Shown piece by piece: positions 45,024-58,059 of a stretch of 64,000 nt of DNA. The translations under genes and the position numbers were made by a program. This DNA is from Promethearchaeota archaeon (GTDB lineage: Archaea; Asgardarchaeota; Lokiarchaeia; Sigyniarchaeales; SOKP01). Every line of letters begins with the position of its first letter. The first letter of the stretch is position 1. The stretch lies in NCBI GenBank assembly GCA_019058245.1, contig JAHPZJ010000010.1:78224-142223 (forward strand). The letters run 5' to 3'. The notes below the pieces were generated by a model. The model was given only the letters and a program-made list of their open reading frames with translations. It was not told where the DNA came from and did no database searches.

Positions 45024-47108
45024 ATGACATATCTCTTTGAAGTTTTAGCCACTAAGATTGGTTATTCTAGAATTGGACGAATTCTATTTTCTAAAGAACG
45101 AAAATTATATATTTCGACACCTAATTTAATTGTTCCTATAAAAAGTGCATTAATGAAACAATTGAACTTTATCCAAGAGTTTGAGGATCATAAGATTTTC
45201 ACTATTTCAAAAGAATTTTTCTTAAAAATTGGATTTTTACGAGAGAAATTTATAAATAATGGATTTATTTTCACTTATCCTGGAACAATTCAGAAATTTC
45301 AAAATATATTAGAAAAAAATACCAGAATTTTTACTGAGGATAACATAATATCAATCATTCCGTTTAATATCCCTACTACTAGCATTAATAAAGAATTTGC
45401 TCTAACAGAGATAAAAAATTATCTTCAATATGCAGAAAAAATTGTAAAAAATTATCCCAATTTAAATTTCGGCTTATCAATAAGAACATTTGATTTTGCT
45501 GAATTATTTGGTCTTTTTGTTGAAACTATAAATCAATTCGAAAATATTAAAATATTGAATTTAGTTGACCTTTTTGATAATTTAAGTAACTTTAGAAATA
45601 AGCTAAAAATTATCTCGAGGATAAAGAGAGAATTAGATAATAACTTAATTTTAATGGCCTCAGGCAGGATTATTCCAAAATATTATCCATTATTAGTATA
45701 TTTAGGGATAGATCTAATTGATTGTTCATATTCACTGTTTTTATCCGCTGAAAACTTCTATGATACGATAGAGTATCTATTACCTATATATAAGATAAAA
45801 TATTTTCCTTGTTCTTGCATAGCTTGTAAAGACAATTTAAAAACTAAAATTAAGAATAAATATTCCTCTGAAAAAATTGACTTATTGTGTATACACAATT
45901 TAATTACCGCCTCAAATTACATGAATAAGATTAAACAGTATTTGAATTATGAAGAGTTCCGAGGGTTTGTAGAAAAATCTTCTATGGATGATATAAATTT
46001 AATTTCGATATTAAGAGTATTAGATAAAAAATATTATGAAGATCTTAAGTACGAAACGCCACTAATACAAAAAAATAAAATAGTAAAAAGTCTAGGTCCT
46101 TCATCATATCATAGACCAGATTTTCAATTTTTTAGAGAAAATACAATTAAATTTTTTGAATCCGAATATTGGACTAATTTAATAATTCTATTACCTTGTT
46201 CAGCAAAAAAGCCTTATTCACAATCAAAATCACATAAAAAGTTTTACAATATTATAAGGAAATTTAGAGAATTTCCTAATTTTCAAGAGTTTATTTTAAC
46301 TTCACCTTTAGGAGTAATACCAAGACAGTTGGAAAATGTATATCCTGTTAATGCTTATGATATCTCCGTTACGGGTGAATGGGATAATGAAGAAATCAAT
46401 ATTACATCTGAAATGCTTGTTAAATTATTGGAAAAATATGATAAAAATATCCCTATAATAAGTCATTTACAAAATGGATATCTTGAAATTGTCAAGAGAG
46501 CATCCTCCAAATTACCTCATAAATTTTACTTTTCCGAAATTGAAGATAAAATGACTTCCAATAAATCACTTCAATCATTAGAAGAACTGATTAAAAAGTA
46601 TAAAGATTTATATCAAGTTAAAATTGAAAATCCAAATAAAGACTATTTATCAAAAACATGGAGTAGAAAGATTGTAAAAGTTTTAGATTATCAATTTGGA
46701 ATTGGCTCAGGAAATAAAATTAATTCCAATGGTTTAAAACTGGATCATTTAAAAGCTAATAATAAGAGTGATATAAGAGATTTAAAAACTCAAGAAAAAT
46801 TGGGTGTATTTAATTTTTCAACAGGTCAAATCATACTATCAATTAAAGGGCTTAGAAAATTAGTTCAATCTCCTCAAACGATTAGTTCTCACTATATTGT
46901 TTTCGATGGGGACGAAATTCAAGGAAATACATTATTTCGTAAGGGTGTATCAGAATATAGTCAAGATCTTATCCCTTACAGTCAAGTGATGATAGTTAAT
47001 AAAGAAAAGAAAGAGATCATTGGGAGTGGAGAATTAATTGTTAGTTCTAATTTCATAAAAAATTCTAAAAATGGGAGAATTGCAAAAATCTATGAACCAA
47101 CGCAATAA
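45024..47108 (+). CDS. arcS: Archaeosine synthase alpha subunit
   Basis: TGT-like N-terminus (YLGID..D, CSC..C, HN); LLPCSAKKPY..SKSH, TSPLG..PR.LE.YP..YD..VTG.W; PUA; adjacent to RaSEA. Confidence 0.9.
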   Translation: MTYLFEVLATKIGYSRIGRILFSKERKLYISTPNLIVPIKSALMKQLNFIQEFEDHKIFTISKEFFLKIGFLREKFINNGFIFTYPGTIQKFQNILEKNTRIFTEDNIISIIPFNIPTTSINKEFALTEIKNYLQYAEKIVKNYPNLNFGLSIRTFDFAELFGLFVETINQFENIKILNLVDLFDNLSNFRNKLKIISRIKRELDNNLILMASGRIIPKYYPLLVYLGIDLIDCSYSLFLSAENFYDTIEYLLPIYKIKYFPCSCIACKDNLKTKIKNKYSSEKIDLLCIHNLITASNYMNKIKQYLNYEEFRGFVEKSSMDDINLISILRVLDKKYYEDLKYETPLIQKNKIVKSLGPSSYHRPDFQFFRENTIKFFESEYWTNLIILLPCSAKKPYSQSKSHKKFYNIIRKFREFPNFQEFILTSPLGVIPRQLENVYPVNAYDISVTGEWDNEEINITSEMLVKLLEKYDKNIPIISHLQNGYLEIVKRASSKLPHKFYFSEIEDKMTSNKSLQSLEELIKKYKDLYQVKIENPNKDYLSKTWSRKIVKVLDYQFGIGSGNKINSNGLKLDHLKANNKSDIRDLKTQEKLGVFNFSTGQIILSIKGLRKLVQSPQTISSHYIVFDGDEIQGNTLFRKGVSEYSQDLIPYSQVMIVNKEKKEIIGSGELIVSSNFIKNSKNGRIAKIYEPTQ

Positions 47109-48192
47109 TCTTTTGGAAGAAAGAAATTCTTTAATCGAAAAAATTAATTCGATCAAGCAAGACGCTTATAGACGGAAAAATATTTACAGAAAAGAACAAC
47201 TTTCACGACCAATAAGTTATTGGATAAAAAACGATAGGTTATTAAATGAAATAGGAAAGACTTTCACAATAATTTTACGGACAAGAGGATGTAGTTGGGC
47301 ATTAAGTAAGTATGGAGGATGTTCTATGTGTGGATATTATTTAGATGCCAATAACGCTGATGTACCTGTTGCTGATCTTATAGAACAATTTAATTATGCA
47401 TTTGATGATAAGATTAATGAAATCAAGAAAGATACAGATAATTTTGTTTTTAAATTATTTAATTCTGGTAGTTTTTTAGATGAAAAAGAAATACCCAAAA
47501 AAGTCAGGACCTACATTTATGAAAAAATTTCAAAATTAGATAAAATTAAGGAAGTAGTTATTGAATCACGTGTGGAATATATTACTAAAGAAAATTTAGA
47601 GGAAATTTCAGAGTATTTTGAAAAAAAGCACTTTGAAATTGCTATTGGACTTGAAACTGTAGACGATTACATTAGGAATAATTATATAAATAAAGGGTTA
47701 TTATTTAAGGATTTTAGAGATGCCTTGAAAAGATGTAAAGACATGGGCATTGGAGTGAAAGTATATTTATTGTTTAAACCATTATTTTTAAATGAACAAG
47801 CGGCAATTGATGATTGCTCTAATTCAATACAGATATTAAAAAGTCTAGGAGTAAATTCTATTTCAATTAACCCAATGAATATTCAAAAAGGTACCCTTAC
47901 AGAATATTTATGGTTTCAGAAGAGATATCGTCCACCATGGTTTTACTCCTTATTTAAATGTATTAAAAAAACCTTTGATAAAGGAGGATTAAATAATATA
48001 CGAATATTAAGTGATCCTTCGGGAGCTGGTACAAAAAGAGGAATCCATAATTGTTTAAAGAAAAAATGTGAGAATTCTGCAAAAACAAAACTTAAAAACT
48101 TTGTTTTAACACAAGATATAACTGAATTAGAACAACAAGAATATGAATGTGATTGTAAGAAAAACTATAGTTTGACAAAAGATTTTCACTAA
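47071..48192 (+). CDS. Archaeosine biosynthesis radical SAM protein RaSEA
   Basis: ILRTRGCSW....GGCSMCGY, SGSFLD, ESR, GLET, YRPPW, GAG..RG.HNC. Confidence 0.9.
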   Translation: MGELQKSMNQRNNLLEERNSLIEKINSIKQDAYRRKNIYRKEQLSRPISYWIKNDRLLNEIGKTFTIILRTRGCSWALSKYGGCSMCGYYLDANNADVPVADLIEQFNYAFDDKINEIKKDTDNFVFKLFNSGSFLDEKEIPKKVRTYIYEKISKLDKIKEVVIESRVEYITKENLEEISEYFEKKHFEIAIGLETVDDYIRNNYINKGLLFKDFRDALKRCKDMGIGVKVYLLFKPLFLNEQAAIDDCSNSIQILKSLGVNSISINPMNIQKGTLTEYLWFQKRYRPPWFYSLFKCIKKTFDKGGLNNIRILSDPSGAGTKRGIHNCLKKKCENSAKTKLKNFVLTQDITELEQQEYECDCKKNYSLTKDFH

Positions 48193-48353: not shown

Positions 48354-48611
48354 TTGTTGAAGAAGAATTGGATTAAATTGAATTTATTCTATATTGGACA
48401 ATCAACTAAGAAACATCAAATATTTAGAGCAAAGGAGTGGGATAAAAGCTTAGAAAAGATTCTAAAAAGCACAATTTATAATGCAAAATATGAAAAAATT
48501 GGACACATTAAAGATATTTTTGGTCCAATAGAGTTTCCCTTTATATCTGTTAAAACTCTACAAACCCAATCATTTGGTTCAGATGAAAAATTCTATACTA
48601 AGATAGTTTAG
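48354..48611 (+). CDS. gar1: H/ACA RNP subunit Gar1
   Basis: IG.IKDIFGP..PFISVK; canonical position upstream of tfb. Confidence 0.82.
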   Translation: MLKKNWIKLNLFYIGQSTKKHQIFRAKEWDKSLEKILKSTIYNAKYEKIGHIKDIFGPIEFPFISVKTLQTQSFGSDEKFYTKIV

Positions 48612-49814: not shown

Positions 49815-50192
49815 TTGATTATATTAAATCAATTTGATGCATTAGGTGTAGTATTATTGGATAATCTAATAAACGAGAGTGAAGTTAGGTATTTTTTATA
49901 TAGAATAGAAAAAAATTTTCCCAATTTTGTTGCTGGTGTCATAACCGATAGACATGGTTTTCCAGTTGCTTCAAAAATCTCAAAGAAATTATGGGTTCTC
50001 GAAAATACATTAGCCTTATCTGCGATTACTAAGAATCGCGATTTTATAGAAGATTCTCAGCTGATTAAAGTTAAACGAGATTTAGATAAATCAAAAAATT
50101 ATAAGTTAATGATTTTATTAGAAAAATCTAAGGAAAATAAGAGTCGTATAAAGCTATTAAAATCTTTAATTAAATCTCAAGAACTTTTTTAG
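49815..50192 (+). CDS. Roadblock-like protein
   Basis: FVAGVITDRHGFPVAS. Confidence 0.55.
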   Translation: MIILNQFDALGVVLLDNLINESEVRYFLYRIEKNFPNFVAGVITDRHGFPVASKISKKLWVLENTLALSAITKNRDFIEDSQLIKVKRDLDKSKNYKLMILLEKSKENKSRIKLLKSLIKSQELF

Positions 50193-50400: not shown

Positions 50401-50871
50401 TTGAATTACTCCGAGGACGAGATTAGATTAAAGAAGATTTTAATCTCAATTATCAATAGTGCCCCCGGATTAAAGTATGCTCTATTAACCGATGATACAG
50501 GAATAACAATTTTAAGTCAATCTAAATTTAAATTTTCTGATAGTGATGGGATCTCTGTAGAGAAAATTGGTGCTATAGGAGGTGCTGTTTTCGTTGCTGG
50601 TGAGGAGCAAGGTCATATTCTGGGTTATGGCGCTATTGGTCTTCAAATAACCGAATATCTTGAAGGAATGATATTTTCTATGAAAGTTGGTAAAGGAGTT
50701 TTATGTATTGTTGCAGATAAAAATGCACAAATAGGATTTATAAGAGCAACCATGAAAAAATGGGGTCCTATGCTTGAATCTATTTTAGGAAGGTATCTAC
50801 AATCTGATCAAGCAGAGCTTGGTAAGGAAATGAAGGAACTATTTAAATCTGATTCTATTGGTATGCTATAG
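50401..50871 (+). CDS. Roadblock/LC7 (MglB/LAMTOR-like) protein
   Basis: ALLTDDTGITILS, IGAIGGA, ITEYLEG, GVLCIVA..AQIGFIR. Confidence 0.8.
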   Translation: MNYSEDEIRLKKILISIINSAPGLKYALLTDDTGITILSQSKFKFSDSDGISVEKIGAIGGAVFVAGEEQGHILGYGAIGLQITEYLEGMIFSMKVGKGVLCIVADKNAQIGFIRATMKKWGPMLESILGRYLQSDQAELGKEMKELFKSDSIGML

Positions 50872-50875
50872 TTGA

Positions 50876-51185
50876 AATCAGCATATTATTGTTGCCTAAA
50901 ACACTAACTCTTATTTCTCATTCAATGGATTTTCCATAAAATCAAAATAGCTCTCTCGTGCTAGGCGTTTAATTTCTATGCCTTTTTAGGACATAATCAT
51001 GTTTCCTGTCTGGGTACTGACTCAAACTTCATTGCTGTTGGTATATACCATTGCTAAGTTAAGAGCCCATTTGTTCAGGAATATTACTGATTAATCAACT
51101 CAAGTGTAAGCGTACTCTTGCGCTACATAATCATATATAATCATATGTGCCCTCGACGACGCTAGTAATCAATCATAGTTGTCCC
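50876..51185 (-). ncRNA. Structured non-coding RNA, H/ACA guide-like with three hairpins
   Basis: Own BRE/TATA; raised GC; three hairpins, each followed by ANA; K-turn-like AAUGA motifs. Confidence 0.62.
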
Positions 51186-51226: not shown

Positions 51227-51721
51227 TTAAGAGAAAGGAAAAGGATCTTTTTTATTCACTCCTTTAATTTTGTCTTCTATTCTTGAAATCAAACTATTTA
51301 GACAGTCATAGAGTATTTTTCTTATTTGTTCATAGGTAATATCAATTTCTAAATCATTACTATTACGAAAATCATCATCCTTATAAAGAGCCTTATATAC
51401 ATTTTTAGTTTTAAGAATTTTATAAGAAGCATCGACTATAAAGGCATAAACTAGTTCACTTTCATATTCTCTTTTCATAATTAAAGACAGCATAGCAAAT
51501 TCTTTTTTCCCGCGTCCCCAATCAGATGGAATCTCAAAATGGAAATTGATTATTTTTTTTTTTTTGGTTATTAAAACAATTTCAAAAAAAGTTTCATCAA
51601 TTTCAAGATCAAAGAATTTGAGAAGGTTACTTACAATATCCTCTTCTAATTTAACATCTGGATAAGAAATTAATACATTTGGACCTTTGATTTGATGAAA
51701 ATAAGTAAGGGTGAGAAGCAT
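51227..51721 (-). CDS. Longin/uDENN-like domain protein
   Basis: LTYFHQIKGPNVLISYP N-terminal motif; FEIPS..RG..E...SL. Confidence 0.6.
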   Translation of the reverse strand: MLLTLTYFHQIKGPNVLISYPDVKLEEDIVSNLLKFFDLEIDETFFEIVLITKKKKIINFHFEIPSDWGRGKKEFAMLSLIMKREYESELVYAFIVDASYKILKTKNVYKALYKDDDFRNSNDLEIDITYEQIRKILYDCLNSLISRIEDKIKGVNKKDPFPFS

Positions 51722-57462: not shown

Positions 57463-58059
57463 ATGAATATTGTCTTCTTTATCTATTCTAAAACAGTAAA
57501 CATTGATAATTATAATATTAAAGATATACCAGGAACCTCAGGAAGATTAGACGTAATTTCACGATGCATCTTAGCAGTATTGCTACGGAATAAATATTTT
57601 GAAAGATATATTCAGATATGGATATTTCTGGACCGTTATGGTACTTTTTTTTTAAATTCTAAGTTTTTTGATTTTGATTTTTTTCCTAAAAATGAAATCC
57701 TTTTCACAGATTATTTTGTTGATTTCCTTCAAAAACTTAAGAGTAATAATGATTTGAAGCTTAATCCGCTAAACACAATTAGAAATTCAACAATGAATTT
57801 TAAAGAAGCATTAAGATACTTTCAACAATTAAATTACAATATATACATTTTAGTTGAACAAGGCCAAGATTTTTTTGAGATATTAAGCAATCTAAAAGAA
57901 AAAAAAAGTATCCTCTTTATAATTGGGAGTCAAGAGGATGAATATATTTACTCAAAGGAATTATCTACACTAAAAATTCCGAATATAAGTATTGGAAATC
58001 AATCTTATCTAGCTTCTTCAGTTATAAGATTATTGAAATTACATTTACTAGCATTATAA
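57463..58059 (+). CDS. trmY: tRNA pseudouridine-54 N1-methyltransferase (SPOUT)
   Basis: DIPGTSGRLDVISRC, L.EQG, FIIG, ISIG..SYLAS. Confidence 0.8.
   Translation: MNIVFFIYSKTVNIDNYNIKDIPGTSGRLDVISRCILAVLLRNKYFERYIQIWIFLDRYGTFFLNSKFFDFDFFPKNEILFTDYFVDFLQKLKSNNDLKLNPLNTIRNSTMNFKEALRYFQQLNYNIYILVEQGQDFFEILSNLKEKKSILFIIGSQEDEYIYSKELSTLKIPNISIGNQSYLASSVIRLLKLHLLAL

Follow-up and report, generated by a model that had tools for sequence, protein, structure and literature searches.

Two convergent genes, one for a roadblock-fold protein (50401-50871, plus strand) and one for a longin-like protein of 164 aa (51227-51721, minus strand), border a gap at 50876-51185 in the 64,000-nt stretch of Lokiarchaeial DNA analysed here (the window). 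The gap contains no ORF of 50 aa or more, its GC content is 33-37% as against 20-24% in nearby spacers, and its folding beats 100 out of 100 shuffled sequences (z -3.0). On the minus strand it holds the gene for a predicted guide RNA of about 305 nt (51185-50881), the ends of which are inferred from conservation and RNA contigs. A TATA box (51215-51208, minus strand) with an A-rich, BRE-like run directly upstream lies before the gene, and 23 nt separate the end of the TATA box from the first G of the RNA (51185). In a position profile of 67 homologs the TATA box is conserved at -30 to -24 and the start is an invariant GGG. An earlier note on this DNA, made without database searches, had proposed an unannotated RNA in an ORF-free, GC-enriched gap between convergent genes with its own minus-strand TATA box 23 nt before the start, and the ORF, GC, folding and promoter results all agree with it.

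The RNA element is single-copy in this genome and no tRNA is called at the locus. Of 36 genomes of the genus, 35 contain it by BLAST, with identities of 68-91%, and a search with a domain model finds one copy in 52 of 54. Metatranscriptome contigs from relatives, contributed by four studies, cover only 50887-51176 and leave both flanking genes bare. They include a contig of 311 nt and several that span two or three domains of the RNA, and as the RNA runs consist of contigs only, strand, ends and expression level cannot be read from them. Lack of conservation or of a transcript, which the earlier note had named as grounds for giving up the RNA, is therefore not what was found. In an Rfam scan of the region at E<=10 only chance matches were obtained, all outside the RNA; SRP RNA, RNase P RNA, tRNA and mobile elements, three of which the note had listed as possible rival matches, gave no match at this threshold, and the element is single-copy. 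The gap holds a real, expressed and conserved structured RNA gene with its own promoter.

The RNA is flanked by two roadblock-like genes (49815-50192 and 50401-50871) and by the 164-aa ORF, which has no Pfam match, and this arrangement is syntenic across the family. Database proteins with 90% identity to those of the neighbouring genes carry the label Lokiarchaeia/Promethearchaeota. Other RNA-modification genes are present in the window at 45024-48192 and 57463-58059, and encode an archaeosine-synthase-like TGT/DUF5591/PUA protein, a radical SAM protein and a SPOUT-type methyltransferase.

Secondary structure

The fold was derived with RNAalifold on 30 homologs. Covariance models were made for three domains, the full length of the RNA being too great for calibration. 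RNAalifold identified a covarying helix, 51163-51159/51113-51109, that is incompatible with the first hairpin as previously drawn. The two stems of that hairpin are paired in only 70% of cells with zero compensatory changes, 472 of 500 shuffles are as good, and the A-ATA box assigned to it is kept in only 8 of 30 homologs. In the revised structure 93% of cells are paired and 21 pairs have double changes, well above shuffled and slid controls. Covariation, which the earlier note had suggested as a check, thus supports a revised three-hairpin fold and excludes the former hairpin 1. The stems and ACA box of hairpin 2, the lower stem and ANA box of hairpin 3 (each box in 30/30 homologs) and the K-turn-like motifs in the hairpins are present as described there; the outer helices and two further K-motifs had been overlooked.

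All parts of the RNA lie on the minus strand. Each of the three hairpins has a lower stem, a pocket and an upper stem, as in archaeal H/ACA RNAs, and each ends in an ANA box in 30/30 homologs. The nucleotides between the predicted target U and the ANA box number 14, 14 and 16 in motifs 1, 2 and 3, and this spacing is kept in distant homologs. Motif 1 (51105-51163) has the covarying helix 51163-51159/51113-51109 as its lower stem, a pocket formed by 51158-51151 and 51121-51114, an upper stem with an apical K-loop, and an ACA box at 51107-51105 (30/30). Motif 2 (51000-51080) has the lower stem 51080-51076/51008-51004, a 5' guide at about 51072-51067, a 3' guide at 51016-51010, an ACA box at 51002-51000 and a K-turn with a non-standard second pair, in which U or A takes the place of G in 29/30 homologs. 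Motif 3 (50890-50966) has lower stems, a K-turn, a 5' guide at 50957-50953, a 3' guide at 50908-50903 and an ACA box at 50892-50890.

Every hairpin is enclosed, together with its ANA box, by an additional helix. Around motif 1 this is a fourth K-turn, formed by a C-box-like strand (51170-51179) and 51104-51098, which has tandem GA/GA in 29/30 homologs, contains compensatory pairs and is retained in distant Asgard homologs. The helix enclosing motif 2 (51088-51093 pairing with 50999-50994, directly after the ACA box) is 97.8% paired with one double change; some lineages have lost that enclosing motif 3 (50977-50981 with 50885-50881). Within the genus the closures of motifs 2 and 3 hardly vary and so provide little covariation, and their support comes from distant homologs, in which unrelated sequences pair at the same places. 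When own and cross-species duplexes are compared in admittedly crude sequence windows, the closure of motif 3 shows a clear difference (-11.6 vs -6.4 kcal/mol, sd 3.5) and that of motif 2 a weak one (-6.3 vs -4.3, sd 2.1). An outer helix, P0 (51180-51185 with 50993-50988), joins the 5' end of the RNA to the end of domain 2 and so closes domains 1 and 2; 90% of its cells are paired.

Predicted rRNA targets

This assembly has no rRNA, and the 16S and 23S rRNAs of congeners were therefore used as targets, with positions given in E. coli numbering and checked by alignment to E. coli 23S. The two target patterns that had been predicted for hairpins 1 and 2 are absent from all 18 rRNA sequences tested. 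In the revised fold, bipartite complementarity around an rRNA uridine of the congeners is strong for motif 1 and atypical for motifs 2 and 3. Motif 1 pairs 8 + 5 bases around 23S U2496. Motif 2 has ACCC exactly 13 nt before its ANA box and pairs with 2579-2584, and its 5' strand pairs with 2590-2593; this pairing requires an enlarged pocket or partial opening of the stem. In distant Asgard homologs the 5' pairing of motif 2 reaches 6 bp with the upper stem intact. In the motif 2 of this genome a U faces U2585, which makes U2585 an alternative target here. Motif 3 pairs with four bases before U1915 and five after A1919, and two helix-69 uridines stay unpaired. For motif 1, U2496 ranked first of 1076 uridines in 68/68 homologs; for motif 2, U2586 ranked first in 47/53; and for motif 3, U1915 was in the top three in 66/68 and first by score alone in only 6/68, ranks that count as support and not as probabilities or independent blind tests, since the registers of motifs 2 and 3 were set after the likely targets had been recognised and the homologs are related. 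We are highly confident that motif 1 is directed to U2496. Motif 3 is likely to act at helix-69 U1915/U1917, and motif 2 in this genome probably, with appreciably less assurance, at U2586.

Several other matches were rejected. An 8-nt match of the motif 2 3' strand to 16S near 319 puts no uridine at the pocket, and matches of the motif 2 stem to 23S near 1900 and of motif 3 to 23S at about 430 and 1010 are unsupported by homology to tested guides.

Motif 2 and helix 69 vary in some of the genomes compared. A subclade of the genus (L022-L025, L029, L076-L079) has lost the 3' guide of motif 2 and kept the hairpin, K-turn and ACA. In family f5 (L128:179-520, L129) a hairpin is inserted in the 3' strand of motif 2, and its conserved loop is complementary to 23S at about 2595-2603, just 3' of the U2586 site; this loop may be a third antisense arm that replaces the weak 5' guide. 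The 23S of G077 (L038) has C at 2586 and the motif 2 guide of its RNA (L065) is shifted by one base, with a low score, possibly a single case of guide-target co-decay. The 23S sequences of G077 and G063 (L038, L045) have short insertions, probably introns, that split helix 69 immediately 3' of U1917, within the target of motif 3, and one 23S of G061 (L039) has an insertion a few bases further along the helix. Two other 23S sequences (L041 from G029 and L047 from G061) are strongly unlike the others in the genus and probably represent contamination of the bins.

Distribution in Asgard archaea

The motif 1 model found the RNA in 114 of 126 genomes of the host's family, in two other families of the class, and in Ca. 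Lokiarchaeum ossiferum. With a pattern for motif 3, homologs that have all three motifs were identified in one more Lokiarchaeial family and elsewhere among the Asgard archaea, one of them labelled Heimdallarchaeota, and homologs are also present in a Helarchaeota-like genome. In several Asgard families most genomes gave no match to the helix-69 pattern, perhaps because of divergence. No homolog was found in G044 and G050 by model, pattern or short synteny window, which does not by itself prove absence. The enclosing helices are seen in most of the distant homologs, the fourth K-turn being absent from some. The synteny with roadblock and longin-like genes is stable within the family, and in other classes the RNA has other neighbours. 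One locus from another Asgard group (L137:1375-1590) has motif 1 and motif 3 and no motif 2, and the K-turn that closes its motif 1 has an exact CUGA box.

Function of the RNA

We consider it very likely that in this RNA Asgard archaea have their counterpart of Pab40/Pf7/Afu-4 (HgcG) and of Haloferax sR-h45, a stand-alone box H/ACA guide of the archaeal type that most likely directs pseudouridine formation at 23S positions 2496, 2586 and 1915/1917. The guide mechanism itself is textbook. By analogy with the tested homologs, from which we infer both protein binding and catalysis, L7Ae would bind each K-motif, Cbf5-Nop10-Gar1 would bind the ANA box and lower stem of every hairpin, and pseudouridine would be made from the uridines presented by the pockets: U2496 in the peptidyl-transferase centre, U2586, and U1915/U1917 of helix 69. 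For the fourth K-turn and the extra helices, the most likely role would be to insulate the AT-rich modules, three in all, and to shield the ends of the RNA.

Cbf5 and L7Ae are encoded in this genome, as identified by sequence motif. Nop10 was not found in this 76%-complete assembly and is present in 19 of 20 congeners. The gar1 gene, which the earlier note had placed near the RNA, is at 48354-48611. Its linkage to tfb is retained in family f2; as gar1 is not seen beside the RNA in the loci of other classes, we give its linkage little weight.

An alternative is that this counterpart of Pab40 is mainly a folding chaperone for rRNA, whose pockets, while the 50S subunit is assembled, would bind helix 69 and the peptidyl-transferase centre, and in which at least one hairpin, motif 2 above all, no longer modifies. 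The atypical pairing of motif 2 and its loss in a subclade are in keeping with this, as is the added loop of family f5 complementary to 2595-2603, and the helices after the ANA boxes could alter the docking of Cbf5. However, selection on catalysis would be expected to preserve the ANA boxes and their spacing, both of which are strictly conserved across Asgard classes, and the equivalent sites are modified by the Pyrococcus and Haloferax homologs (PMC2377435, PMC7075261). We regard a predominantly chaperone function as improbable.

Of lower probability still, in our estimate, is a composite C/D-H/ACA guide, in which the fourth K-turn would be a functional C/D motif that recruits Nop5-fibrillarin and guides 2'-O-methylation. 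Composite eukaryotic scaRNAs resemble such a guide, C-like and D-like strands do enclose motif 1, and in L137, a distant homolog, the D box reads exactly CUGA. However, C/D motifs typically contain a U-U pair, which is not conserved here, the D-like box varies and some homologs (L138, L139) are without this K-turn. In addition, the ANA box and lower stem of motif 1 sit upstream of the D-like box, which leaves no free antisense element of the kind that defines a box C/D RNA. No support was found for U3-like, Sm-site or C/D-methylation readings. Finally, the absence of an Rfam match and the stable synteny with the roadblock and longin-like genes in the family would fit an RNA of a new class without kinship to known guides, or else a conserved structure belonging to the flanking genes, either untranslated or a terminator, an idea that we find scarcely credible given the RNA's own promoter, RNA contigs on this stretch only, the different neighbours in other classes and three ordered pockets that match a described family, and that homology to HgcG and sR-h45 largely refutes.

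A box H/ACA guide of the Pab40 lineage thus remains our preferred reading. The earlier proposal of a multi-hairpin H/ACA guide with extra helices stands, on covariation, ANA spacing, rRNA complementarity and homology to Pab40 and sR-h45; its register of hairpin 1 and its targets do not, and in place of the new RNA class that it offered as an alternative we see the diverged counterpart of a family already described. The literature searched, the coverage of which was incomplete, yielded no paper on an Asgard H/ACA guide. Our reading makes specific predictions of pseudouridine at the peptidyl-transferase centre and helix 69 for a cultured Asgard archaeon, Ca. Lokiarchaeum ossiferum, and would extend the Pab40 lineage, missed here by Rfam, from Euryarchaeota to several Asgard classes. 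The enclosed ANA boxes, with a helix that starts right after the ACA, also raise the question of how Cbf5 docks.

Comparison with known guide RNAs

Outside the Asgard archaea the comparison covered Thermococcus copies, fetched for this work, and published guides. Pab40, Pf7, Pho40 and Afu-4 (Rfam HgcG, RF00064; PMC2377435) resemble the Asgard RNA in having three motifs in the same order, with motif 3 targeting helix 69. In vitro, motif 1 of P. abyssi Pab40 modifies 2588 and motif 3 modifies helix-69 position 2016 (PMC2377435); the sites of Pab35 imply an offset of 92, with which P. abyssi 2588 would correspond to E. coli 2496. Motif 1 of the Thermococcus copies agrees with that of the Asgard RNA in its K-loop, pocket core and 14-nt spacing, and the ACCC + 9 nt + ACA of motif 2 recurs in Pf7 stem II. 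The Asgard RNA has its pockets for 2496, 2586 and helix 69 in the HgcG/Pab40 order. The target of motif 2 differs, in that Pab40 motif 2 acts at P. abyssi 1932 and the 2586-equivalent, the predicted target of Asgard motif 2, is unmodified in P. abyssi.

Haloferax sR-h45 supplies the parallel for that site. Its SL1 and SL2 correspond to motifs 2 and 3 and have been described as homologous to stems II and III of Pf7, with 2586 and 1915/1917 as their sites (PMC2584109); their action at these positions is proven (PMC7075261). SL1 has the same spacing of ACCC + 9 nt + ANA as motif 2. SL2 shares with motif 3 four unpaired target bases, a long spacing and nearly identical pocket strands (PMC7075261), and the one G-to-A guide change between the two pockets mirrors the helix-69 difference between Haloferax and these genomes. 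In contrast to the Asgard RNA, sR-h45 has two hairpins, a 56-nt spacer and no 2496 motif. In yeast, snR46 and snR191 guide 25S 2865 and 2258/2260 (PMC5699541), and 2865 would equal E. coli 2496 by the offset of 369 taken from 2826/2457 in PMC11077068. Two of the three target regions are also modified in yeast, by separate two-hairpin snoRNAs without K-turns; the comparison with these concerns the equivalent sites.

The Asgard RNA departs from HgcG in its composition and in what surrounds the motifs. It is AT-rich and undetected by RF00064 (Thermococcus copies score 215 bits); a search with this model in five Asgard genomes gave no match, this RNA falling below the gathering threshold. The adjacent motifs with single-stranded ANA linkers characteristic of HgcG are absent. 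Thermococcus motifs abut and leave no room for enclosing helices, whereas the Asgard RNA has these helices, the fourth K-turn and the outer P0. On account of the missing RF00064 score and the abutting Thermococcus motifs we treat the Asgard RNA as a variant and not as a plain member of the family. Common descent is the simplest reading of the same pockets, spacings, order and targets. A further possibility, which we put forward tentatively and think rather unlikely, is that an ancestral guide for three targets (2496, 2586 and helix 69) has been retained by Asgard archaea with an architecture of its own, where a basal helix closes each H/ACA unit and a C/D-like K-turn closes the first. If this enclosed architecture is confined to Asgard archaea and has a function, such as a part in processing or the recruitment of additional proteins, it would represent a structural step between simple archaeal guides and the composite C/D-H/ACA RNAs of eukaryotes.
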